Origin: Candidatus Thalassarchaeaceae archaeon
Lineage (GTDB): Archaea; Thermoplasmatota; Poseidoniia; Poseidoniales; Thalassarchaeaceae
Assembly (NCBI GenBank): GCA_965660655.1
Contig: CBFIAW010000002.1
Coordinates: 1 to 59,201, forward strand
Reading direction: 5' to 3'
DNA: 59,201 bases
The translations under genes and the position numbers were made by a program. Of the stretch, positions 1 to 33,385 are shown piece after piece. The notes below the pieces were generated by a model. That model was not told the origin of the DNA. It worked only from the letters and a program-made list of their open reading frames with translations, and ran no database searches. How positions within the stretch are numbered: position 1 is the stretch's first letter; each line of letters starts with the position of its first letter.

Positions 1-1359
1 TTGCGGACAATAGCAAAGAGGGATTCAATTGTGAGTATGGTTGCTGAAGGCTCGATTTCACCAAGTGGATCACTGTCTACTTACCAGCCCAAAGTAGCAG
101 AGATGGGAGAGCTTCGTAGGAAGAAGAGAGAGTTATCCGATACGGATGATGTGGCCGAGCTTCTAACATCTGAGATCACTCATACGCCGATTGTAGGACT
201 AGTCGTTCTAGCGATTGTGTTGACCAGTTCAACCCTGAGTGCGGCTATGGGCTCGGGGCCATTGATTCTGGTTGCTTCGGGGGTTTTCTGCTGCATCATC
301 GTTTTCCTGATAAGGAGCCGAACTAGAGGGCTAGAGTTAGAATTGCCTCACTTTCTTGGAATGGAGATGCCGATTGCACTGACAATAGCCGGTGTATGCA
401 CGATTCTGGTATCGGGACATGTTTTCCCACCCGGTGGCAGTCCGCACAAGTTGCTAGACATGGCTGTTGCTTCTGTACTGGTGTTGGTTCTATTGATGAT
501 CTCCCTGTTGCATCAGAAGAATCTTCTAGACAGGATTTCTATCGCTATTGACTGGTTTATTCTCCCACTATTATTGGCTCGTCTGGTGGCGGTTGCTTTG
601 GGAGGGGCTCTTCCCCCTCCAATGCTGGTGGATCCATTCGACGGCGATCAATTAGAATGGACTGGTCCGTGGTTGCTTCTGGAATCTATTCTAGTCCTGT
701 GTGTTTTGGTTGGTTACTGGGTGGATGAGAAAAAGAAATCCCTGGGCAGGGAGAATAGGGACAGTGGCATTGGGATTGGATTTCGTTGTTTGGCGATTGT
801 GATGTTGTCTTTCGGGCCTGCGGGACTGCTTGCTGCTTCTAGTGCCTGTTTTCGTAGTATTAGGAATTCCCAACCATCGGGCCTCGGGGTTGCCCTTCCC
901 GCTGGAGTTCTAGCTTGTTTTACTCTCCTGGCTTGGAATGGGTCATTGCTGGATTCTTTCGGCGAACTGGTTCTGCTTCTTGGAGTGGTGGTTATGGTGG
1001 CTTGTGCGCTCTCCGTCCCGCTTAATCTGGAGAAGTGGACCATTACTCTGGCTGTTGATGGTCATTTGTTCGTAATCTCGGGGGCAATCCTGGTGGGGGT
1101 GGTGGGTGGGTTCGAACTCCCGATACTTCTGATATTGATGTCGACCACGGTATGGGTTGTCGGTATCCTGCAACTTAGGAAGGGGCTGAGGGTTTGGGGC
1201 CTTGCAGATTTAATCGCGGCTCTCCTCTGCTCGTTTGTATTTGCTTCCAAGGGGGTAGATCAGTACGATATTTTACTGGGGATGACTGCTCTGGCGCTGG
1301 AGTTAGGAATCATTGCTTGGCTCGGATTATCAAAACAGGATGAGTTGCGCGGGGACTAG
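1..1359 (+). CDS. Polytopic integral membrane protein of unknown function (ORF runs to the window edge and may be 5' truncated)
   Basis: 452-aa ORF. A charged ~60-aa N-terminal segment is followed by about a dozen hydrophobic helices (e.g. IVGLVVLAIVLTSSTL, MAVASVLVLVLLMISLL, LVLLLGVVVMVACALSV). No catalytic motif recognised. Confidence 0.5.
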   Translation: MRTIAKRDSIVSMVAEGSISPSGSLSTYQPKVAEMGELRRKKRELSDTDDVAELLTSEITHTPIVGLVVLAIVLTSSTLSAAMGSGPLILVASGVFCCIIVFLIRSRTRGLELELPHFLGMEMPIALTIAGVCTILVSGHVFPPGGSPHKLLDMAVASVLVLVLLMISLLHQKNLLDRISIAIDWFILPLLLARLVAVALGGALPPPMLVDPFDGDQLEWTGPWLLLESILVLCVLVGYWVDEKKKSLGRENRDSGIGIGFRCLAIVMLSFGPAGLLAASSACFRSIRNSQPSGLGVALPAGVLACFTLLAWNGSLLDSFGELVLLLGVVVMVACALSVPLNLEKWTITLAVDGHLFVISGAILVGVVGGFELPILLILMSTTVWVVGILQLRKGLRVWGLADLIAALLCSFVFASKGVDQYDILLGMTALALELGIIAWLGLSKQDELRGD

Positions 1360-2404: not shown

Positions 2405-3712
2405 ATGGTCATGGAAGGAGAGGAGCATGTGCCCATCGTTCCATCAAAGAGGGGGGTGACCAATGCGAAAAAGAATATCAAACCAGAGGCTTCCAGAAAG
2501 GGTGAGCCCGCATTCTTCATGAACGAGGGGATGAAGAGGCTATCCACCCCGTGGTCTGTTGCCTCCATCAGGGCCGGACAGGTTGACCCTCTTTCCCTAC
2601 CTGCGGGAGTGATACTTGACGCAGCTGTTGGCTCAGGTGTTCAACTGATCGCTTTCTCCAAGATCCTGAAGAGGCCGGCACTAGGCATTGAATTGGACAA
2701 TGAGGTAGCCAAGCTGTGTGCTGCAAATATGCAACTCAACTCTGAAGGCGAAGTGCAACGCTCGTTAGATCGAGTCTTAGTGGGAGATGGACGTGCTGCT
2801 GAATCTGCAATTACAACATACTGGACCAGCCTAAGGGATTCTGGTACGCGGGCCCACCCCCCCATAGCAATGCTTCACCTTGATCCGGCTAGGCCAAGGG
2901 ATGCACAGAACCACAGCCTTGACGAGATGGAGCCAAATATCAAGGAGGTTCTGAAGGCCTGGAGCGCCCGTTTACAGGTTGGACCTAAGGGTCCGGCGGT
3001 GCTACTGGATCTATCGCCTAGACTGGATACTGTACAACGAGCCATGGTCGATGGCATCCTTGAGACGACCTTTCCCGGAGCTTCATGGACATGGGAGTGG
3101 CTTAGTAGAGGGGGTGGAAGAATTGACAGGCTCTCGGTCTGGATTGGTTCTCTTTCATCGAATAGTTCGAAAAGATGCATCAGAGTTGGGAGGAAGAATA
3201 TCATTGCAAGCATCGAAGGAGAGGGAGCGGGGGCTAACACATCTCCGTTCAATAGCGTACTGGAAATCCCTCGAGGGGCCTACTTGACGATAGTCGATCC
3301 AGTGCTAATAGAGAGTGGCCTCCAAAACTCCTGGCACAACAAGGCAGTTGCGAGTGGAACTGGGTCATCTTGGGTTAGAACAGAAGGAAGAAGGCCGATC
3401 CTAATCCATACTGATGAGATCTCGGAAGATGATGGGGTTCGGGGATTCGTTGTAGCTACCGGACGAATTGTGCAACACCGACTCTCCGCCCCGGAATTGA
3501 ACACCATTGACCAAGTTGCATCATCTGTTGCGAAGAAGGGGATTTCGAATATTACCCTTAGATGCAGTCTGGACCCAGAAAAACATCCAACCCTCCAGAG
3601 GAGGATTACTAAGGAGTTGAAGGGAGTTGAAGGTACAAAGGGTTTCATGGTTGACATGGACCTGCAAAGGCCCACTGGAACTCAGAAGCTGTATGTCGTT
3701 TGCAAGGAGTAG
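2405..3712 (+). CDS. Class I SAM-dependent methyltransferase (N-terminal MTase domain plus C-terminal THUMP-like/unknown domain)
   Basis: Motif I is VILDAAVGSGVQLIAFS (D/E-x-G-x-G-x-G type). LHLDPARP resembles the (F/I)xDPxRR motif of this MTase family. 435 aa. Confidence 0.6.
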   Translation: MVMEGEEHVPIVPSKRGVTNAKKNIKPEASRKGEPAFFMNEGMKRLSTPWSVASIRAGQVDPLSLPAGVILDAAVGSGVQLIAFSKILKRPALGIELDNEVAKLCAANMQLNSEGEVQRSLDRVLVGDGRAAESAITTYWTSLRDSGTRAHPPIAMLHLDPARPRDAQNHSLDEMEPNIKEVLKAWSARLQVGPKGPAVLLDLSPRLDTVQRAMVDGILETTFPGASWTWEWLSRGGGRIDRLSVWIGSLSSNSSKRCIRVGRKNIIASIEGEGAGANTSPFNSVLEIPRGAYLTIVDPVLIESGLQNSWHNKAVASGTGSSWVRTEGRRPILIHTDEISEDDGVRGFVVATGRIVQHRLSAPELNTIDQVASSVAKKGISNITLRCSLDPEKHPTLQRRITKELKGVEGTKGFMVDMDLQRPTGTQKLYVVCKE

Positions 3713-4291: not shown

Positions 4292-4918
4292 ATGGGCGAG
4301 CCGAAATTCTCTAGGCCACGGACACAGACTCCGACACATCCTTGGAAGCAAGCAAGAATTGACGAGGAGCATGATCTCAAAGAAAGATACGGACTGAAGA
4401 AAATAGGCGGAATGAGGGAGATCTGGAAGGAAAAGTCCGCACTCAGAAGGCACCGAAATCAAGCGATGAAGCTTATCGGCAGGGTTGACTCGTCAGAGGG
4501 ACACTATGCAAAGGAGATGGAACAACTGCTGGAGTCTCTTTCTAGGAAGGGTTTGCTTCAGACGGGCGCGGACATAGGAGACGTGCTTGAGATAAATGTT
4601 GAGCACATGCTTTCCAGGAGGCTGCAATCATTAGTCTACTACAAGGGACTTGCACCTTCCATGAGGGCAGCGAGGAACCTGATCGTTCACGGACATATTT
4701 GTATTGGCGAACAGCGGATGACTGTCCCAGGGTATCACGTCCTAAAGGAAGAGGAGGATTCCCTTCAATACAGTTCAAACTCTCCCTTCGGAGATCCTGA
4801 ACACCCGTTCAGGAAAGACTTGGAGACTATGAGATATCAAGATGAAGACGAGGAGTCCGCAGAAGCCGATGAATCGGCAGATGAGTCTGAATCCTCGACT
4901 GACAAGGAGGAAAAGTAA
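4292..4918 (+). CDS. rps4: 30S ribosomal protein uS4 (S4P/eS9-type) with an acidic C-terminal extension
   Basis: MGEPKFSRPR..THPW..ARIDEEHDLKERYGLKK..REIWK plus an S4 RNA-binding domain (RRLQSLVYYKGLAPSMRAARNLIVHGHI). The tail is DEDEESAEADESADESESS. Confidence 0.9.
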   Translation: MGEPKFSRPRTQTPTHPWKQARIDEEHDLKERYGLKKIGGMREIWKEKSALRRHRNQAMKLIGRVDSSEGHYAKEMEQLLESLSRKGLLQTGADIGDVLEINVEHMLSRRLQSLVYYKGLAPSMRAARNLIVHGHICIGEQRMTVPGYHVLKEEEDSLQYSSNSPFGDPEHPFRKDLETMRYQDEDEESAEADESADESESSTDKEEK

Positions 4919-8302: not shown

Positions 8303-8321
8303 GAACCCACCGTGTCAAAGA

Positions 8322-8666
8322 CTACTTTCGCATACGGGCGTAGAAGTCATAGAAGTAATCACGGATTGGCCATGGAACCAACATCATCGCTGATGCCAAT
8401 GACCATGGAAAACTAAGTTTCCCACATGCCCTCCAGATGGCCGCACTCTTCGAATACCAATCTCCTCGTTTAGAAATGAGGAAAATAGAGTCGATGCCCT
8501 CGAGCCTCTTTGGGATCGCCCTCATGATTTCCAGACCTTCGGAACTATTCTGTCCAACCAAATTTATCCTTGATTCTGGATCCCTCCTTCGGATGAATTC
8601 GGCCCATCGGACGCATTTGCTGCATTGATCATCGAAGAGGATGACATTTGGATTACTAGAAGACAT
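8322..8666 (-). CDS. Thiol-disulfide oxidoreductase, DCC family (DUF393)
   Basis: VILFDDQCSKCVRWAEFIRRRD matches the (Y/F)DGxCxLC...RD signature. The small size (114 aa) fits. Confidence 0.65.
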   Translation of the reverse strand: MSSSNPNVILFDDQCSKCVRWAEFIRRRDPESRINLVGQNSSEGLEIMRAIPKRLEGIDSIFLISKRGDWYSKSAAIWRACGKLSFPWSLASAMMLVPWPIRDYFYDFYARMRK

Positions 8667-8673
8667 TCTTCAC

Positions 8674-22649: not shown

Positions 22650-23006
22650 TCACTCTGAAGCATTGCCGCCATTGGCAAGCATCTTCTGGAGATCGCCGGA
22701 CTGGTACATCTCCAGTACTATGTCTGAACCGCCAATCAACTCGCCATTGATGAAAACCTGCGGGATAGTTGGGAAATCTGACCATTCCTTCAATGCGGGT
22801 CTGGCCCTAGGGTCCAATAGGACATTGACACAAGCAAATGTCTCCATCCCAAGTTCAGCTATTACCGTGCTGAGGACTTGTGCGCCCCTTGCGGAGAATC
22901 CACACTGGGGCTGTTCAGGGGTCCCCTTCATGAAAATAACAATTTGGTTTTCTTCAACAACTTCTTGCAGCTCTTCGGGTGTCCAGTCAAAACTCATCTC
23001 AATCAC
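22650..23006 (-). CDS. grxD: Monothiol glutaredoxin (Grx4/5 family, CGFS)
   Basis: VIFMKGTPEQPQCGFSARG, WSDFPTIPQVFINGELIGGSDI. Confidence 0.85.
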   Translation of the reverse strand: MIEMSFDWTPEELQEVVEENQIVIFMKGTPEQPQCGFSARGAQVLSTVIAELGMETFACVNVLLDPRARPALKEWSDFPTIPQVFINGELIGGSDIVLEMYQSGDLQKMLANGGNASE

Positions 23007-23326
23007 TCCTCTCTCGGTCTTCGAATATGTACCCCATAGAACTCATGCTCTTGACCATGTGGGTCGAAGGCCGTCTGAGCGGATCCTTCGGCTTGCTTGG
23101 GAGTCATGCATTTCAGGTCTAAGGCATGTACGGTGTTGTTGGAGATGAACTCCTTGAAATGGTTCAATATTGGCTTCTGTCTCTGAAGTGGCATTATCCC
23201 CTCATAGCTTTCTGAAATCACTCTGACGTGAAAGTGGTCACCCGTTCCATGCAAATCAGAGGCCTCGACGATAGCATGTGGCACGACCTTGAGGATCTCC
23301 TGCCTCATCCACTCAACGGTTACCAT
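23003..23326 (-). CDS. bolA: BolA family protein
   Basis: GTGDHFHVRVISESYEGIMPLQRQKPILNHFKEFISNNTVHALDLKCMTP (BolA H...F.G....RH..V......I HAL pattern). There is a 4-nt overlap with grx. Confidence 0.8.
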   Translation of the reverse strand: MVTVEWMRQEILKVVPHAIVEASDLHGTGDHFHVRVISESYEGIMPLQRQKPILNHFKEFISNNTVHALDLKCMTPKQAEGSAQTAFDPHGQEHEFYGVHIRRPREE

Positions 23327-23356
23327 GGAACTCGGAAGTAGTAGTTCAGATATAAA

Positions 23357-24149: not shown

Positions 24150-24467
24150 ATGGGCAAGGTTGTGGATACTGGTGACACGGACTTTGATGTAACAACAAAG
24201 AGCGATGAATGGGTACTAGCGGATTTCTGGGCTCCATGGTGTGGGCCATGCAGAATGGTTGGCCCGGTCCTCTCACAGATTGCCCAGGAAAGAGAGATTA
24301 CCATTGCAAAGGTGAATACTGATGTCAATCCCCTTACTTCAGGGAGATTTGGGATCAGGGGGATTCCGGCACTCATTCTTTTCAGAAACGGAGAGATGGT
24401 TGACAGGATGACTGGGGCAATGCCAAAGCAGAGTATGGATTCCTGGCTAGACAGGCATATGTCCTAG
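24150..24467 (+). CDS. trxA: Thioredoxin
   Basis: DFWAPWCGPCRMVGP, FGIRGIPALILFRNGE. Confidence 0.9.
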   Translation: MGKVVDTGDTDFDVTTKSDEWVLADFWAPWCGPCRMVGPVLSQIAQEREITIAKVNTDVNPLTSGRFGIRGIPALILFRNGEMVDRMTGAMPKQSMDSWLDRHMS

Positions 24468-26017
24468 GTTTCAGTGCTATTCAGCTTCCCAAGCCTCTCA
24501 TCGAATGGCTTACCGACATCCCTCAGAAGTCTAGATCTGAGAGCCTCGTGTAACCACATGCCGTCTTCCAACTCGAGCATCAACCCCCTCTCAATGAGTT
24601 GTTCTGGGGGGATCCCGTCGACGCCGGCAGCCATTGCCAACTTCTCCCAAGGAACCGGTCTCTCAGAGGTGGCTAGAATGGAAAGTATCTCCCTATGAGA
24701 CTCTGGGAGGACGTTCAGAATTTCATCGTCTAAGAATCGGAGCCAGTCTTCGTGGAGTGTTTTGCCGTACATTTCGAGTAATTCGACTGCAAGAGGGTGC
24801 CCTCCTGTAACTCTGTGAATCTCTGAAGCAGGCGCGTTTTCTGGGATTTCTATCATTTCTATCCATGCTTCAATCTCTTCTGGGGAGAGGCCGGATAGCG
24901 TCATCTCCGATACCTTGTCTAGGGTGTGCACATATCTGCGGTCGTAGAAGGCTAGACTTGTTCTAGAAATCATCAATAGTCGTAGTTTAGTTTTCTCCGC
25001 AGTCTGAAGGAGGGCCCCGAACAAGTGATCGCCGCTAGTACCGATGTTGTGAACGTCGTCTAAGACTACTAGGGCTTCATCGATTTTGCTCCCTTCGGAA
25101 GGATTGATGAGTGATTTCTCATCGATCAAGTGTGCTGTTAATCGTCGCCTGAATGAGTCTATTTCCAGTCTAGCTGCAGGCTTGTATGGAAGCGTTGCCA
25201 GGATGTCGTAAGGGTCTTCTGATTCTTCAGTGATCCCAATTCGGTGAAGGAGACTGGTTGCAATTCCGAGTGGCGAATCCCATGGTTGGCAGGGATAGTA
25301 CATTGTCTTTAGTTCGGGATTTGCATTCATCATCTCTGAAATCCAGTGAGATGCTAGTGTTGTCTTGCCACAACCAGCGATTCCAGAGAGGACAAGTAAT
25401 GGTTTTCCGGAGTTGAACCAGACGTCTAGAGCTCCAATCTCATCCTTTCTTCCATGGACCGTACGAGTCTTTGGTGGCCTTGTATGGTAGGTTGAGTGAG
25501 CTCCTGTGAGGATGGAGGATGATCCTGGTGAGGGCTTGTTTTCGTTTTTTCTAACCAAGGCTCCGAATCGGATATCTCCGAAGTTGAGGACTCCCTCGTG
25601 TTGGGCGTGCATCAGGATTTGTAGTAGGCTGAGACCGGCACGCAACTTGTTCGCGGCCTCATCCGCTCTTATTTCCAGAACGTTGCCCTCATTCGATCTA
25701 ATCAAGACCATTAGGGTGCGCAACTCAGAGATTCTCTCCCTTGCTAGTTCCCTCCCTTCCTCCGTTAGTTGCCATGTCTTTTGCCTACGATTATCCCCTC
25801 TCACTGTCCTACTGTGCTGAGAAATATATCCTTGAGAAGTCAGTTGCCTCATTGCCCGGGAGACGTTCGGGGGGTGCAAGGCACAAGATTCTGCTATTCC
25901 CGAACGAGTGACGTCAGAAGTTACAATGTAGTGATCGGCTTGGAAGTCCTGTTCCCATAGATGTAGCATTATTCTATCTGAAACGGGCACATTGGGTCGT
26001 GAATCGTTGCGTGCCAC
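24464..26017 (-). CDS. wHTH + P-loop NTPase (archaeal ATPase/STAND-like) putative regulator
   Basis: The N-terminal winged helix is GIAESCALHPPNVSRAMRQLTSQGYIS...RRQKTWQLTEEG. Walker A is LVLSGIAGCGKTTLASHW and Walker B is ALVVLDDVHN. The C-terminal region is helical. Confidence 0.65.
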   Translation of the reverse strand: MARNDSRPNVPVSDRIMLHLWEQDFQADHYIVTSDVTRSGIAESCALHPPNVSRAMRQLTSQGYISQHSRTVRGDNRRQKTWQLTEEGRELARERISELRTLMVLIRSNEGNVLEIRADEAANKLRAGLSLLQILMHAQHEGVLNFGDIRFGALVRKNENKPSPGSSSILTGAHSTYHTRPPKTRTVHGRKDEIGALDVWFNSGKPLLVLSGIAGCGKTTLASHWISEMMNANPELKTMYYPCQPWDSPLGIATSLLHRIGITEESEDPYDILATLPYKPAARLEIDSFRRRLTAHLIDEKSLINPSEGSKIDEALVVLDDVHNIGTSGDHLFGALLQTAEKTKLRLLMISRTSLAFYDRRYVHTLDKVSEMTLSGLSPEEIEAWIEMIEIPENAPASEIHRVTGGHPLAVELLEMYGKTLHEDWLRFLDDEILNVLPESHREILSILATSERPVPWEKLAMAAGVDGIPPEQLIERGLMLELEDGMWLHEALRSRLLRDVGKPFDERLGKLNSTET

Positions 26018-28394: not shown

Positions 28395-28502
28395 ACGTGT
28401 TACCTCGTTACTTGAATGATGGCGAGTCATATCAACACTCGTTTTGCATTCCAGTTCGGCTTCGGCCGGAACATATGTGTCTTAGCCCTCTTTGGGGGGG
28501 TC

Positions 28503-29965
28503 GTGGGTGCATACGGAGAACTGCTGGAGAAACTGAAAGATATTGACTTGATTCAGCAGATTGGGAGCCTGATAAGTTGGGATCAGGAGGTCCTGATGCC
28601 TCCCAAGGCTGCACCAATCAGAGCAGAGCAGCTTGCATGGATCTCTAAGACTGCTCATGAGAGGCTAACTGATTCAGAGATTGGGTCTTTGTTGGAGCAA
28701 AATGAGTCAAATGACGACCTAGATGAGGTGCGGAAAGCAAACATAAGACTCGCGAGGGAGTCTTACGACAGAGCAACCAAGTTGCCAACGGAATTCGTTG
28801 AAGAGATGGCGAAACACAGGTCGAAAGCACTTGTATCTTGGACGGAGGCTCGTGAAAAGGATGATTTCTCAATATTTCGAGATGACCTAGCCATAGCTAT
28901 CGAGCATTCTAGAATGAAGGCGGATTTCTTCGGTTATGAGAATTTGAGATATGATGCACTACTCGATTTGTATGAGAGTGGGCTTACCGTAGAGAGGCTG
29001 GATCCGCTTTTTTCGGGCCTTAGGGACCATGTTGCCCCTCTCATCAAAGCAGTAGTTGACGGCGGGAATAGCCAGCACAAGAAGAGTTGAGCCAGAGGGT
29101 TTCAGAGGCCATTGGTTTCGACTTCTCAGCAGGCAGGAGAGATTTGTCGACCCACCCTTTCTGTGGCGGACCAAATCCAGATGACGTCAGATGGACGACT
29201 CGGTATAGGGAGGACGAGCCTTTCGGATCTCTATTTGGTTCGATGCATGAAACAGGGCACGGTACGTACGAACAAGGGCGTCCCCGGGACTTCGATTTCC
29301 AGCCAGCCGGGAAGGCAAATGGACTGGGAGTGCATGAGAGTCAGAGTCGCCTCTGGGAGAACCAAGTGGGCAGATCTAGAGAGTTCTGTGAGTGGTCCCT
29401 ACCTTTGTGGAAGCAATGCTTCCCGGGGAACATGGAGGATGTTGGCGCTGAGCAATTGTGGCAAGCAGTGAACTTGGTAGAGCCAGGGCTAATTCGGGTG
29501 GATGCTGATGAGGCGACTTACAACTTGCACATAATGATTAGATACGAAATTGAAAAACAACTAATCTCGGGTGACATCGAAGTTGACGAGTTGCCCGATG
29601 CATGGGATGAGATGTATCAGGAATATCTCGGAATAAGTGCGCCGAACCGCTCTCTTGGAGTTCTGCAGGACGTTCATTGGTCAATGGGTGCAATTGGTTA
29701 CTTTCCCACTTACACACTAGGTAACCTATACGCTGCTCAACTACTAGAGGCCGCGAGGAGGGATATCCCCAAGCACGATGATCAGATTCGAGATGGAGAG
29801 TTTTCACATCTTCTGAGTTGGATGAGGGAAAATGTTCACAGCAGAGGGAGTGTGCTAGAACCGGCAGACCTGATTGAAGAGGCTACAGGATCCGCTCCAT
29901 CTCCGGATGCTTTCGTTAGGTATCTGAGTTCGAAGGTCGAAAGGCTGTATGGGGTTAGTGCTTGA
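28503..29965 (+). pseudogene. Carboxypeptidase Taq (peptidase M32), interrupted by a frameshift near 29070-29090
   Basis: The N-half is in frame 0 (YGELLEKLKDIDLI...ISWDQEVLMPPKAAP...) and ends at the TGA at 29088-29090. The C-half is in the frame 1 nt behind (…QEELSQRVSEAIGFDF..GRRDLSTHPFCGG..DVRWTTRYRE...HETGHGTYEQG...IRVDADEATYNLHIMIRYEIE...LQDVHWS.GAIGYFPTYTLG). Together the halves form one M32 enzyme. A possible GTG start lies at 28503 (the ORF opens at 28416). Confidence 0.75.
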
Positions 29966-31073
29966 GAGTCGAGCGAGGTGCTCCGTGGCTGTAGCAAGTC
30001 TGGAGAGTTATTCCTCCTTTGTGAGGGAGGTTGATGACGAATGCGCCTTTGTGAGAGCTTCAGGTGATTTTCTTTTCTCGGGCTCCAGGTCTGGTGAAGT
30101 GGCATGTTGGAATATTTCCAGTGGTGCGGAGATATGGAGGATGATTTTTGACGGACCGTGCTCCGATTCAGATTGCAATGAAGAAATTCTTTTCTTTTGT
30201 GAGTCTGGTAGCATTCATGCCATTAGAATTAGTTCGGGCGAGGTGATCTGGAGTGTCAGATTGGAAGGATCTAGTGACTTTGTACGTGTTTCAAATGGAT
30301 TTGTGTGGGTAACAACTTCTGTCTACAACTTTGAGATACAAGACTACTCCGAAGGGGCCGTCTGGCAAATCGATTTTGGTGGAGATGTTAGGAACAGGTT
30401 TGAGACCGTTGGTAGGGCTTGGTCTCTATCGGCTCAGGAAAGTCAAGTAGTGATGGGGCTAAGTCGGCCCAGATGTGGTTATGCAATTGTTACTGAAGAG
30501 GATGGTATTGAATATCTGGAGTTGGAAGAACAGCACCCGGTGACAATCGGAAACGAGGGGGGGGATTGTCCCGTAGTGCTAGGACATAGCAATGGAATGG
30601 TCACCGAGATTGTTGGTCATAAAGTGGGGACTACTGCTCATGGAGAGTCGTCGGTTCGTGCAATTGACCACTCTGATGGGTGGGTGGTTGGGTTAGATTC
30701 AGGCTTTGTTTCCTCAAGCGAATTTTTCGGATCTTGGTCGGTTAATCTACATGGTGTAATCGATATTGTTCGTTTCGGGCCTTCATTGGGTGATGAGAAG
30801 GGAGTTTGGGCCTCTTCATGGGAAAAAGAATCCAAGATTTTTCTAATTGATTCTTCGGATGGAAGTGTGGAATTGGAGATTTCACACCATTCTAGAATTG
30901 GGTGTTCTTTCAGTATTGGAAATACAATTTGCTTCGGTGATTCTTCTGGCTGCGTCTATGTAGTTGAGGAGGATGTGCTCCGGCGTCGGTTCTCTCTTCC
31001 AGCGGAAGAAATATCGGAGGAAGACCGAAATTCAGAGATGCGGAGGAAAATACGCGGACTGCGAGGAGGGTGA
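29949..31073 (+). CDS. PQQ-like/WD40-like beta-propeller repeat protein, no signal peptide
   Basis: Repeated blades GEVACWNISSGAEIWRM, GSIHAIRISSGEVIWSV, GAVWQIDFGG, NGMVTEIVG and SGCVYVVEED. The tail is basic (RRKIRGLRGG). Confidence 0.6.
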   Translation: MGLVLESRARCSVAVASLESYSSFVREVDDECAFVRASGDFLFSGSRSGEVACWNISSGAEIWRMIFDGPCSDSDCNEEILFFCESGSIHAIRISSGEVIWSVRLEGSSDFVRVSNGFVWVTTSVYNFEIQDYSEGAVWQIDFGGDVRNRFETVGRAWSLSAQESQVVMGLSRPRCGYAIVTEEDGIEYLELEEQHPVTIGNEGGDCPVVLGHSNGMVTEIVGHKVGTTAHGESSVRAIDHSDGWVVGLDSGFVSSSEFFGSWSVNLHGVIDIVRFGPSLGDEKGVWASSWEKESKIFLIDSSDGSVELEISHHSRIGCSFSIGNTICFGDSSGCVYVVEEDVLRRRFSLPAEEISEEDRNSEMRRKIRGLRGG

Positions 31074-31189
31074 TTTGCAGTGGAAAAACACTTCCAAAGA
31101 CCCTTATTTCCAGTGAACTGCGACAATATTTGCGAAACGTTTATGAGCCATCCATTACCCTGTGTTTCTTGCCGCTCCGGGGGAGTGGT

Positions 31190-31770
31190 GTGAGGGCGCT
31201 TCGGCGCGACTCGCGGGCCACAAAAACCGAGCCTCGAAACCGAGGCGGTAGAACCGAGAAACGAAAGGATCTCGGGGAAAGACTGGAGCGAATGTGAACG
31301 CGAAGGTCGCGGCGAATAAATCGGACGAACTGGAGGAAACGAAGGGGAGAGCGAGATAGGAGCTGAAGAGATACATGTGCGTAGGGGGAAGAGAATAATC
31401 CTGGGTCACATAGGTGGGGAACGAAGTGGAGAAAACCGGAGGAAACGAAGGGGAAGGAAACCGAGGGAAACATCAGGCAACAAGGGCGGGGAGACCCGTG
31501 GAGAAGCTAGTATCGAGACGTGGAAGGGAAAGCGGAGACGAAATACCAGAAGCGGATGCGGCGATTAGGAGGGAGATCTCTTGAAAGTCGGAAAATGGCA
31601 AAGGAAGAGCATGAAGTTCCGGAGTCGTCTACCCGGGGAAACCTGGGCCTTCGGGCCCAGGTGACACCCGGACCCTGCGGAGTTAACAGGGGGGGAAGCT
31701 CCCCCATGTGCGGAACCCCCTGTTGCTCCCACCTGATTCGGCCCCCATTCTTCTTCTGAGCCGAAACGTA
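31190..31770 (+). ncRNA. Candidate large structured non-coding RNA of unassigned family (boundaries approximate)
   Basis: No credible ORF in a 710-bp convergent spacer. C(UUCG)G hairpins at 31196-31207 and 31642-31661 (the latter nested inside CCGGG 31633-31637 / CCCGG 31667-31671). Hairpins at 31231-31246 (GCCUCG-AAAC-CGAGGC) and 31299-31311. A 9-bp helix pairs 31685-31693 with 31716-31724. The UUCG orientation favours the + strand. Confidence 0.3.
31332..31454 (+). repeat. Exact 17-nt direct repeat GGAGGAAACGAAGGGGA (31332-31348 and 31438-31454) within a field of degenerate GAAAC(C)GA(A/G)GG purine motifs
   Basis: Read directly from the sequence. Related copies occur at about 31236 (GAAACCGAGG), 31258 (GAAACGAAAGG), 31418 (GGAACGAAGTGG) and 31457 (GGAAACCGAGGG). 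Confidence 0.7.
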
Positions 31771-31783
31771 GTCGTGCTGACTT

Positions 31784-33385
31784 CTATGAATTCGGGCCTG
31801 TCATTTCCTTAGGTTTTACCCAGTCTGTGAACTGATCATCGTTGAGTAACTCGAGTTCGAGAGCACTCTCCCTTAAGGTCAGACCTTTCTCGAGGGCGTT
31901 CTTTGCAATCTTAGCAGCATTGTCATACCCTATGTGTGGGTTTAGTGCGGTCACTAACATTAATGAGTTCTCCAAATGGTCAGATATTTTCTCTTCGTTC
32001 GCTTTCACACCGATAACACACTTGTCGGAGAAGGTTACGCAAGTGTCGGAAAGTAGCCTTATGCTGTGCAAGAGATTGTGAATCATCATTGGCTTGAATA
32101 CATTCAACTCGAAGTTCCCCTGACTTCCACCTATAGAAATTGCAGTGTGATTACCCATTACCTGGCAGCAAACCATTGTCATCGCTTCTGATTGGGTTGG
32201 ATTCACCTTTCCAGGCATGATACTTGATCCTGGCTCATTAGCTGGAAGAGCGAGTTCTCCAAGTCCGCACCTGGGCCCAGAACCTAGCCATCGAATATCA
32301 TTGGCGATTTTCATGAGAGATGCTGAGAGGGTGTTGAGTGCCCCTGAGGCAGCGACTATGGCATCGTGTGCAGCGAGTTGGGCAAACTTGTTTTCTGCAC
32401 TAATGAAAGGAAGGCCAGTCTTCTCGGCTATCTTCTTGGAGACCAAGTCTGCGAAGTCGGGATGGGTGTTCAGCCCAGTACCAACGGCAGTTCCACCTAA
32501 TGCGAGTTCAAGTAGGTCATTCAGTGCTGTTTGGATTCTAATTAGGCCAGCATCCAACATCGAAACATATGCTCCGAACTCTTGTCCTAGAGTTAGCGGG
32601 ACGGCATCCATCAGATGAGTTCGTCCGATCTTGACGATATGCACGAACTCATCTGCCTTTTCGGCCAGAGAAGTTCGAAGTTTCTGCACAGATGGGATGA
32701 GTCGGTGCTGGATCTCCTCTGCTGCAGCGATATGCATTGCAGTGGGGAATGTGTCATTGCTCGACTGGGCACGATTAACGTGGTCATTCGGGTGGACGGG
32801 GGATTTGGTTCCCAGTTTCCCTCCTGAAGACTCTATGGATCTATTTGCAATTACCTCATTTGCATTCATGTTAGTCTGAGTTCCCGAACCAGTCTGCCAA
32901 ATCCTGAGTGGGAAATGGTCGTCAAGAGATCCAGAAATTACCTCTTCGCATGCCTCCGAAATGAGGGTTCCAACATCCTCGTCGAGAGTTCCCAGAAATA
33001 CGTTTGTCTCGGCGGCTGCCTGCTTAAGAATTCCAAACGCTCTGATGACTGAGCGGGGCATCTGGTCTTCACCAATATCGAAGTTGATTAGCGACCTAGC
33101 AGTTTGTGCACCAAAATATCTGTCTGCTGGCACCTCAATTTCTCCCATGGTGTCTAGCTCAATCCTAACCTTCCCACGGACACCCTTGGGAGACCTTGAA
33201 ACGGATGATTTGGCAGTGATCTGATGGGCATTGCCCCCGGTGAGTGAAGTCTCAATCATCTTGGAGATAGTTGCCGATCTGCCCTTCTCACGACCCTGCC
33301 CAACCCGCGCATCCAATCTTCTAGCCAAATCCTCAGGAATGCTAACAGTGATTATTCTACGATCGCCGACTCTATGCTTTGCCAT
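31784..33385 (-). CDS. fumC: Class II fumarate hydratase with an in-frame N-terminal ribbon-helix-helix (CopG/Arc-like) extension
   Basis: The core from residue ~73 reads [23 protein letters not shown]..., with [17 protein letters not shown] (the class II signature). Residues 9-48, [40 protein letters not shown], fit the RHH strand-helix-helix pattern. No stop codon lies between the two parts. Confidence 0.9.

Follow-up and report, generated by a model that had tools for sequence, protein, structure and literature searches.

What is encoded by the 710-bp spacer that separates the stop codons of a PQQ/WD40-like beta-propeller open reading frame (ORF) and fumC in a contig of a Candidatus Thalassarchaeaceae archaeon (assembly GCA_965660655.1, contig CBFIAW010000002.1)? 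We analysed positions 1 to 59,201 of this contig, hereafter the window, in which the spacer occupies positions 31074–31783, and compared the spacer with its counterparts in related genomes. The results indicate that the spacer is very probably an RNA gene of a new family. For the reading as a whole, in which a stand-alone gene produces a large structured non-coding RNA (ncRNA) acting in trans as a scaffold, we estimate a probability of about 0.6. Among GTDB species representatives, the 80 loci closest in fumC all belonged to Poseidoniales (Marine Group II), with the nearest in Thalassarchaeaceae. In the surface ocean, members of Marine Group II rank among the most abundant archaea of the plankton. 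To our knowledge, none of them has been cultured, and beyond rRNA, RNase P and signal recognition particle (SRP) RNAs we know of almost no large structured RNAs in Archaea. A conserved RNA of 0.4–1.25 kb that is under stronger selection than the proteins next to it suggests that a ribonucleoprotein or RNA machine has gone unrecognised in these organisms.

Constraint on the spacer and its promoter

We compared the spacer with syntenic loci and with the four-fold degenerate sites of fumC. Nucleotides 1–671 of the spacer aligned to 16 loci at 82–98% identity, and to further loci in pieces. At locus L002, the nucleotide identity of the spacer was 92.7%, compared to an amino-acid identity of 67.6% for the beta-propeller protein. 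Across L007–L023, the fumC four-fold degenerate sites were saturated (identity 0.27–0.33), whereas the promoter region, 5′ domain, central tract and 3′ domain kept 0.65–0.96 identity, barring insertion-driven dips. The promoter region (31074–31168) retained an identity of 0.65–0.95 where the fumC four-fold sites were at ~0.3, and the central tract retained 0.65–0.97 against saturated synonymous sites, with values under 0.77 only where insertions were scored as mismatches. The last 46 nucleotides (nt; 31738–31783) showed identities of 0.08–0.76, with no tendency to exceed the fumC four-fold sites. These results show that 31074–31737, which keeps 65–99% identity in relatives with saturated fumC four-fold sites, is under strong purifying selection and that the last 46 nt are neutral. 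Since constraint covers that stretch and the tail is neutral, we regard 31074–31737 as the functional unit. The initial annotation had proposed conservation in related genomes as a check, and the syntenic spacer was constrained in comparison with the saturated fumC sites.

A second proposed check, a conserved coding signal, returned nothing: the spacer alignment contained no conserved ORF, no 3-nt periodicity and no prevalence of indels in threes. Variable columns were distributed as 78/72/68 over the codon phases, 27 of the 39 indels were of 1 nt (2 nt, n = 4; 3 nt, n = 3), and the longest ORFs differed in frame and length among close relatives. Minus-strand ORFs of up to 252 aa occurred in some relatives and are a by-product, because the pyrimidine-rich strand has few stop codons. 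Such spurious ORFs are likely to be annotated here as hypothetical proteins in metagenome-assembled genomes (MAGs).

The conserved stretch begins with an upstream element and a promoter, followed by the predicted RNA. The flanking genes and these elements are as follows.

29949–31073, plus strand: PQQ/WD40-like beta-propeller ORF
31075–31121, plus strand: upstream conserved element, TTGCAGTGGAAA (31075–31086) and an imperfect inverted partner TTTCCAGTG(AACTGC) (31107–31121)
31133–31147, plus strand: archaeal promoter, B recognition element (BRE) CGAAACG (31133–31139) and TATA box TTTATGAG (31140–31147), recognised by conservation and fixed spacing
31171–31733, plus strand: predicted mature RNA of 563 nt, with conservation starting at TTGCCGCUCC and ending at GCUCCCACC
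31738–31783, plus strand: non-conserved tail up to the fumC stop codon, a likely termination zone
31784–33385, minus strand: fumC

The archaeal BRE/TATA consensus is well established, and its form here, CGAAA-N-R-TTTAT, was kept in all homologue types, very distant ones included. In 74/75 homologues, the first T of the TATA box preceded the conserved G of TTGCCGCUCC by 31 nt. Because this spacing is fixed, initiation is predicted at G31171, after a pyrimidine. The conserved 3′ limit was GCUCCCACC(U) at 31725–31734, and conservation stopped at 31737; both ends of the RNA are thus predictions from conservation and promoter spacing. The tail probably holds the termination zone, and a T-run (≥4 T, within 60 nt of the 3′ motif) was present in 54/84 homologues, the window itself not being one of them.

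Upstream of the promoter, TTNCAGTGGAAA was found at −96/−95 from the predicted start in 81/97 distinct homologues, with its inverted partner near −64 (31107–31115 in the window). This upstream box differs by one mismatch from the mini-origin recognition box (mini-ORB) core TTCCAGTGGAAA and equals the euryarchaeal mini-ORB core GTTCCAGTGGAAAC, the mini-ORB consensus being taken from PMC1868953. In some relatives the box is followed by a G-string, for example TTCCAGTGGAAAAAGGGGT in L037. The inverted repeat could be a transcription-factor or Orc1/Cdc6-type site, or alternatively a 3′ hairpin of the beta-propeller mRNA. The initial annotation had held that the spacer is not a promoter region; this view has to be revised, as ~97 nt (31074–31170) comprise what appears to be the RNA's own promoter together with the conserved upstream inverted repeat.

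The base composition of the spacer was also distinctive. The initial annotation had described it as the largest non-coding gap of the window, lying between convergent stop codons, and its coordinates were confirmed. The next largest apparent gaps (22786–23356 and 8303–8673) resemble, by eye, small minus-strand ORFs, so that the spacer is the largest non-coding gap of the window. The purine skew of the plus strand was likewise reproduced: we recounted 47/60 purines at 31441–31500, and the purine fraction of 0.74 across 31250–31620 was the highest of all 370-nt windows in the 59 kb (mean 0.505, standard deviation 0.055; ~4.4 standard deviations). The direct repeat reported earlier, the exact 17-mer GGAGGAAACGAAGGGGA, starts at 31332 and 31438, 106 nt apart, and the extended repeat is 21 nt long at 95% identity. 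Where about ten GGAG/GGAGG motifs and several GAAAC-type copies had been noted, the plus strand contained 14 GGAG and 5 GGAAAC, compared to 3 and 0 on the minus strand. The G+C content of the spacer was 0.52–0.66, compared to 0.39–0.50 in the flanks.

Folded domains of the predicted RNA

The predicted RNA divides into a 5′ domain of five hairpins (31171–31308), a central domain and a 3′ domain (31601–31737), with the following elements.

31171–31189, plus strand: H1, the 5′ terminal hairpin GCCGCUCC-GGG-GGAGUGGU, near-invariant family-wide
31190–31214, plus strand: H2, containing C(UUCG)G (31196–31207)
31226–31249, plus strand: H3, containing GCCUCG-AAAC-CGAGGC (31231–31246)
31254–31275, plus strand: H4, with a GAAA loop
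31281–31308, plus strand: H5, with a GGA/GAA internal loop and a UGUG loop
31309–31600, plus strand: central domain, an array of irregular hairpins
31330–31345 and 31436–31451, plus strand: two copies of the module CUGGAG[GAAA]CGAAGG, with further G[GAAA]C units elsewhere in the central domain
31486–31499, plus strand: hairpin GCGGG[GAGA]CCCGU, with a compensatory G-C to A-U change at 31490/31495
31565–31584, plus strand: hairpin UUAGGAGG[GAGA]UCUCUUGA, in which 6/8 pairs covary
31603–31620, plus strand: first hairpin of the 3′ domain
31633–31671, plus strand: composite hairpin, CCGGG/CCCGG enclosing CCUGGGCC-UUCG-GGCCCAGG (31642–31661)
31677–31733, plus strand: 3′ terminal element, a GCGGAG...CUCCC helix around the long hairpin AACAGGGGG/CCCCCUGUU, with apical CUCCCCCA and the tail ACC

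We examined the 5′ domain for compensatory changes in two alignments. In the MAFFT alignment of 27 sequences, 19/44 pairs showed two-sided changes, and 89% of cells were paired, compared to 35–44% in slid controls. A covariance model built from this alignment found the 5′ domain in every family type. In the alignment of 72 distinct sequences fitted to that model, and hence biased to the structure, 38/44 pairs showed two-sided changes and the covariation score was 0.375, compared to ≤0.09 in slid controls. None of 500 shuffles reached the observed covariation score. H1 was paired in 99.8% of cells (72 sequences), with G-U counted 68 times at pair 1 and 63 times at pair 4. Its sequence in L026 was GCUUC/GAAGC, where a single pair (C-G to U-A) was counted as the two-sided change. 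H1 was common to the Poseidoniaceae-like types described below and to the viral contig L081. On the opposite strand, the invariant G-U pairs of H1 (pairs 1 and 4) would become C-A, which places the RNA on the plus strand. The plus-strand transcript proposed in the initial annotation thus agrees with the strand indicated by the conserved promoter and the G-U pairs.

The 3′ domain showed the same kind of support, with 14/26 pairs covarying and 93% pairing overall. Within 31601–31676, 9/13 pairs had two-sided changes, the compensatory variants including GGGACC/GGUCCC, AUAAUCC/GGAUUAU, CCCGGGCC/GGCCCGGG and CUCGGGCC/GGCCCGAG. In the 3′ terminal element, 5/6 pairs of the upper stem covaried, and the base helix and the apical CUCCCCCA were invariant. 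All 44 distinct 3′ elements, folded singly, gave the same long hairpin with differing stem sequences, and the 9-bp helix 31685–31693/31716–31724 was backed by compensatory changes. The UUCG, GCCUCG-AAAC-CGAGGC and 9-bp hairpins that the initial annotation had listed are therefore all present and all supported by compensatory changes in relatives. An end-to-end pairing of the 5′ GCUCC/GGAGU with the 3′ GGAGU/GCUCC was also considered and rejected: in L026 the 5′ helix changed to GCUUC/GAAGC while the 3′ helix remained unchanged.

In the central domain, the 17-mer repeats formed hairpins of the type C(U/C)GGA-x-[GNRA]-y-GAAGG. Among 86 RNAs, the closing pair x-y was C-G in 55 cases, G-C in 43, G-U in 3 and another combination in 12, and the loop was GCAA, GAAA or GUAA in 88/113 modules. 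The stem of the module contains three consecutive purine-purine oppositions (GGA over GAA), and the same GGA/GAA internal loop occurs in H5. The number of modules varied through insertions of 20 and 85 nt, and GGGGGA at 31383 was invariant. Poseidoniaceae-like members were ~50–60% purine and did not carry the module. The initial annotation had described the GGAG/GGAGG motifs as Shine-Dalgarno-like; for the 17-nt repeats this was not upheld, since they form small GNRA hairpins and are not unstructured.

Together, the spacer exhibited above-neutral conservation, compensatory changes, and a promoter and strand of its own, as expected of a structured ncRNA gene. Selection, covariation and the predicted length of 563 nt agree with the earlier proposal of a structured, lineage-restricted ncRNA of ~0.4–0.6 kb.

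Family members and comparison with described RNAs

A pattern scan of metagenomes recovered ~58 further true members, and each scan member with enough flanking sequence lay between the beta-propeller gene and fumC. Members of the Thalassarchaeaceae type were 559–1246 nt long, and those of the Poseidoniaceae-like types ~423–777 nt. The divergent members found in the scan (L151, L161 and L194, ~423 nt; L169, ~777 nt; L181, ~695 nt) were unrecognised by profile search. The covariance model scored them at E = 2e-4 to 2e-3, and the window at 155 bits (E = 6e-41). They carried the same upstream box, BRE/TATA and H1, with unrelated middles, and a 3′ element GCGGAGG-[CUGG...CCAG]-YUCUCCCAUC, whose motif GCGGAGG...CCAG(Y)UCUCCCA the Poseidoniaceae-like types have in common with the window. 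In the divergent members the RNA gene stood directly after the beta-propeller orthologue, and L151, L161 and L194 had no fumC downstream. Their beta-propeller proteins were 40–42% identical to those of Poseidoniaceae and 28% identical to that of the window. Because these proteins are closest to Poseidoniaceae, the family would span Poseidoniales, the Poseidoniaceae-like placement being based on protein similarity.

Three features characterised the family: a near-invariant 5′ hairpin, GCCGCUCC-NNN-GGAGUGGUG; a long 3′ terminal hairpin with a GGAG/CUCC closing helix, after which comes CA(A/C/U)C; and a hypervariable, expandable middle of UUCG- or GNRA-capped hairpins, which is extremely purine-rich in the lineage of the window. 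The window carried BRE/TATA at 31133–31147, GCYRCUCC-NNN-GGAGUGGYG at 31171–31192 and GCGGAG-[long hairpin]-CUCCCA at 31677–31733. Poseidonia species had only 13–36 nt between the beta-propeller and fumC genes, and the covariance model found nothing there. With the 5′ hairpin, the 3′ element and the position after the beta-propeller gene as handles, annotation fixes in MAGs, quantification in metatranscriptomes and in vitro structures as for OLE, ROOL and GOLLD would become possible.

Several loci deviated from the common arrangement. L015, L016 and L017, whose fumC is ~80% identical to that of the window, had unrelated genes after fumC and neither the beta-propeller gene nor the RNA at that position; this locus is rearranged. 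In the L041 member (~1250 nt), the last ~330 nt were duplicated in tandem (RNA-sense positions ~730–1400 of the L041 spacer), resulting in two 3′ terminal hairpin elements. At L146 (~893–1043, minus strand) and L167 (2023–2173, plus strand), a TATA-like box was accompanied by the H1-like hairpin GCUGCUCC-GCA-GGAGUGGUG, and the downstream sequence looked protein-coding; the H1-like hairpin may be a reusable 5′ module.

A further look-alike was located on a 72-kb viral contig (L081:1202–1875; IMGVR_UViG_3300007514_000005). Here, ~10 direct repeats of ATTTGTAGC(C) with a 15–16-bp period and one inverted copy formed an iteron-like array. The repeats were followed by BRE/TATA and, 30 nt on, by GCCGCUCC-UGU-GGAGUGGUGUG, which is the family's 5′ hairpin, and then by ~300 nt of hairpin-rich non-coding sequence ending in ...GCCCACCUU (covariance model, E = 9e-5). 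Further iteron copies seem to be present at 3029–3300. A scan of viral contigs with the 14-mer GGACCCTGCGGAGT gave >120 matches, all attributable to chance by profile check, and the additional matches obtained with a relaxed 5′ hairpin pattern were promoter-less and likewise due to chance.

Searches against Rfam 15 yielded no match at the gathering threshold for the window and none at E ≤ 10 for the spacer. In E-value mode, none was obtained for seven divergent homologues (E ≤ 1) or for eight look-alike loci. The best scores were at chance level (E = 0.6–1.3, far below the gathering scores), with OLE, GOLLD, ROOL, HEARO, raiA and IMES among the families covered, and the models for C/D and H/ACA small RNAs, introns and rRNA gave no match to the spacer. 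ARAGORN identified 0 tRNA or tmRNA genes in the window, and BLAST against phage and plasmid records showed no similarity to the spacer RNA. The absence of an Rfam match fits the initial annotation, which could not fit RNase P, SRP or 5S signatures.

Two archaeal RNAs were considered individually and rejected. The covariance models of RNase P RNA (RF00373) and SRP RNA (RF01857) gave no match, and neither the CR-I (GAGGAAAGUCC) and CR-V motifs of the former nor the helix 8 motifs of the latter were seen. Both are stable archaeal ncRNAs, as the spacer RNA is predicted to be, and likewise have promoters of their own and paired termini. In Marine Group II, RNase P RNA (292–306 nt) and SRP RNA (305–315 nt) are canonical Rfam matches (PMC5069720) and are located elsewhere, and because these copies are canonical and detectable with Rfam, the spacer RNA is neither of them.

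A closer candidate is the 229-nt Tan1 (Thalassoarchaea ncRNA 1), for which Hou et al. (2016, Sci Rep 6:35470; PMC5069720) reported fifth place in RNA-seq of Red Sea Marine Group II. According to that study, it is highly abundant and Thalassoarchaea-specific, is predicted to fold into a complex structure and has homologues of 75–79% identity. On clearly less than even odds, the spacer RNA may be or contain Tan1, a possibility compatible with our reading and drawn from a likeness of description, not of sequence. Tan1 agrees with the spacer RNA in lineage (Thalassoarchaea / Marine Group IIb) and level of divergence, its abundance fits the strong promoter, and the best-conserved 5′ part (31171 to ~31400) is ~229 nt long, as is Tan1. 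However, 229 nt is far from the ~563 nt predicted here and the 420–1250 nt of the family. In the literature, Tan1 was mentioned in no paper besides Hou et al. 2016, where its locus, family breadth, promoter and architecture are not described. If Tan1 is a fragment, the full size, gene anatomy, order-wide family and architecture would still be new, and the spacer RNA may explain and enlarge the Red Sea Tan1 signal.

The bacterial RNAs OLE, ROOL and GOLLD resemble the spacer RNA in size (~0.5–0.8 kb), in their dense covarying hairpins with GNRA and UUCG loops, and in being lineage-restricted. OLE is tied to the neighbouring oapA gene (PMC9723947), a linkage that resembles that between the spacer RNA and the beta-propeller gene. 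However, there is no homology by Rfam, and the spacer RNA is archaeal with an archaeal promoter. Moreover, the bacterial RNAs have a conserved core throughout, whereas the spacer RNA combines conserved termini with a hypervariable, expandable middle.

Possible functions and neighbouring genes

We propose that the RNA would be transcribed from its own BRE/TATA behind the conserved upstream inverted repeat. Because the RNA ends in helices, its stable tetraloops are plentiful and its G+C content exceeds that of the flanks, we infer a stable RNA that would act in trans and would probably be abundant. A role as a ribonucleoprotein scaffold is plausible, though somewhat short of even odds. In such a particle, the base-paired termini might shield the RNA from exonucleases and bind one or more conserved partners, and the repeated GA-rich GNRA hairpins might serve as multivalent protein sites or as RNA–RNA tertiary or quaternary contacts. 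The upstream WD40-like beta-propeller protein is the only candidate partner, suggested by linkage. This candidacy carries little weight, since the protein is found unchanged where the RNA is missing; we regard the partnership as doubtful, and the linkage may be plain synteny.

Several points weigh against the overall reading. The alignment of 72 sequences was fitted to the model and is biased to the structure, and the MAFFT test of 27 sequences is unbiased but smaller. The folding energy of the whole spacer (minimum free energy compared to shuffled sequences) was not significant (z = −1.66 on the plus strand, +0.85 on the minus strand), and because it was no better than that of shuffled sequence, the case for an RNA depends on the comparative data. 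The middle was not conserved between sub-lineages, which fits a scaffold but also fits a role of the termini only. The beta-propeller protein, with the same conserved tail, persisted in Poseidonia species without the RNA at this site, and any protein partner is putative. The start, end and abundance of the RNA are predictions from sequence.

Other functions were weighed against the same evidence. The initial annotation had speculated on a sponge for a protein or the anti-Shine-Dalgarno sequence. Such a decoy RNA would use its many GGAG, GGAGG or AGGUG motifs and its repeated modules to titrate an RNA-binding protein or the anti-Shine-Dalgarno end of 16S rRNA, as CsrB/RsmZ do for CsrA. The excess of GGAG on the plus strand (14, compared to 3 on the minus strand), the repetition of the module with a variable copy number under selection, and the use of GAGGTGA-type Shine-Dalgarno sites for operon-internal genes in this genome would suit such a function, and CsrB/RsmZ also carry a short purine motif (GGA/GGAG) many times, in variable copy number, in a multi-hairpin RNA. 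In CsrB/RsmZ, however, the motif is displayed in loops, whereas the GGAGG of the repeats lies inside a covarying hairpin stem, as tandem G-A pairs under GNRA loops. Furthermore, the richness in purines and GGAG is specific to a sub-lineage and the invariant parts of the family are its termini. We know of no CsrA-like protein or homologue in archaea. The speculation thus gained no support, and we consider it unlikely. The position of the RNA, starting right after the beta-propeller stop codon and ending ~50 nt from the fumC stop codon, and its constant linkage to the beta-propeller gene could instead reflect a cis-acting untranslated region, which would be either the long, structured 3′ UTR of the beta-propeller transcript or an antisense regulator that converges on fumC. 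This is very improbable, since the RNA has a BRE/TATA of its own with constant spacing to the conserved 5′ hairpin, the segment facing fumC is the only unconstrained part, the downstream gene in L194, L151 and L161 is not fumC, and Poseidonia keeps the beta-propeller/fumC pair without the RNA. For a protein gene, a pseudogene or a divergent known RNA (RNase P, SRP, rRNA fragment or intron), the minus-strand ORFs reaching 252 aa in some relatives could be cited, but the shifting frames, common single-nt indels, lack of periodicity, lack of an Rfam 15 match or of phage and plasmid similarity, and the canonical RNase P and SRP RNAs of Marine Group II (PMC5069720) bring its probability close to nil. 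The cis-acting and coding explanations are effectively excluded.

An origin-associated element was also considered, in which the TTCCAGTGGAAA-type boxes would be Orc1/Cdc6 sites and the G-rich transcript an R-loop or primer, comparable to ColE1 RNA II. The upstream box fits the ORB core of Euryarchaeota, GTTCCAGTGGAAAC, with a G-string after the box in some members; beyond the promoter, the non-template strand is strongly enriched in purines and G; L081 has the same promoter and 5′ hairpin beside ~10 iterons; and the window also encodes PolD DP2, 3.3 kb from the spacer. The spacer thus shares with archaeal replication origins (oriC) and ColE1 RNA II a mini-ORB-like box upstream, a G- and purine-rich transcript and a viral look-alike beside iterons. 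In contrast to oriC, however, it has no inverted ORBs around an A+T-rich core: we found one good mini-ORB-like box with a degenerate inverted partner, and purine repeats that all run in the same direction and form RNA hairpins. No orc1/cdc6 gene was present among the 27 large ORFs scanned (16–48 kb of the window), and no A+T-rich unwinding element was seen in the spacer, whose G+C content exceeds that of its surroundings. The genes on both sides point towards the site, and GC skew tracks gene strand only, without a skew change. The 12-mer was not enriched in the window (11 matches, compared to 6.6 expected), and the corresponding junction in Poseidonia species lacks the element. Finally, the covariation reflects selection on a folded RNA. 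An origin element is therefore highly unlikely. The mini-ORB-core box at a fixed −96, the R-loop-prone G-rich transcript and the L081 hairpin beside iterons also underlie a broader idea, that the RNA is the core of an order-wide system tied to genome replication or virus-host conflict. This is a long shot; if true, the RNA would license origins, act in priming or titrate Orc1, and viruses would copy it, and archaeal replication control of this kind is without described precedent.

The remaining observations concern the neighbouring genes. The beta-propeller proteins (window 29949–31073; L181:6988–8010; L194:2113–3138) are WD40/PQQ-like, 340–374 aa long, and end in a conserved basic tail ...RR...(acidic)...KLRxLR; by its N-terminus the protein looks cytoplasmic. 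Comparison with PDB and NCBIfam gave generic WD-repeat similarity only (RACK1 repeats, E ~5e-5), which is not evidence of function, and an exact-protein lookup found the window's beta-propeller protein not on record. Upstream of it, the M32 (Taq-type) carboxypeptidase gene appeared as two overlapping ORFs (28416–29090 and 29087–29965) matching the N- and C-terminal halves of the Pfam model, owing to either a frameshift, a pseudogene or a sequencing error near 29087. The sole initiator-like ATPase among the ORFs scanned (16–48 kb) was a 517-aa protein at 24464–26017 (minus strand), 5 kb from the spacer, with an N-terminal winged-helix/helix-turn-helix domain and an AAA+ domain (AAA_16/AAA_22), atypical for Orc1/Cdc6. 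The window also encodes an archaellum operon. Operon-internal genes (for example, those with starts at 4292, 4918, 5313, 46996 and 43535) had GAGGTGA-type Shine-Dalgarno sites 8–11 nt upstream. The fumC gene appears leaderless, with a TATA-like TTTATTAATA ~25–30 nt before its ATG. Its N-terminus (33176–33385) carries a ~70-aa extension that resembles a ribbon-helix-helix DNA-binding domain and received no call from Pfam; the extension was present in all 80 GTDB loci and missing in the L181 lineage (463 aa).

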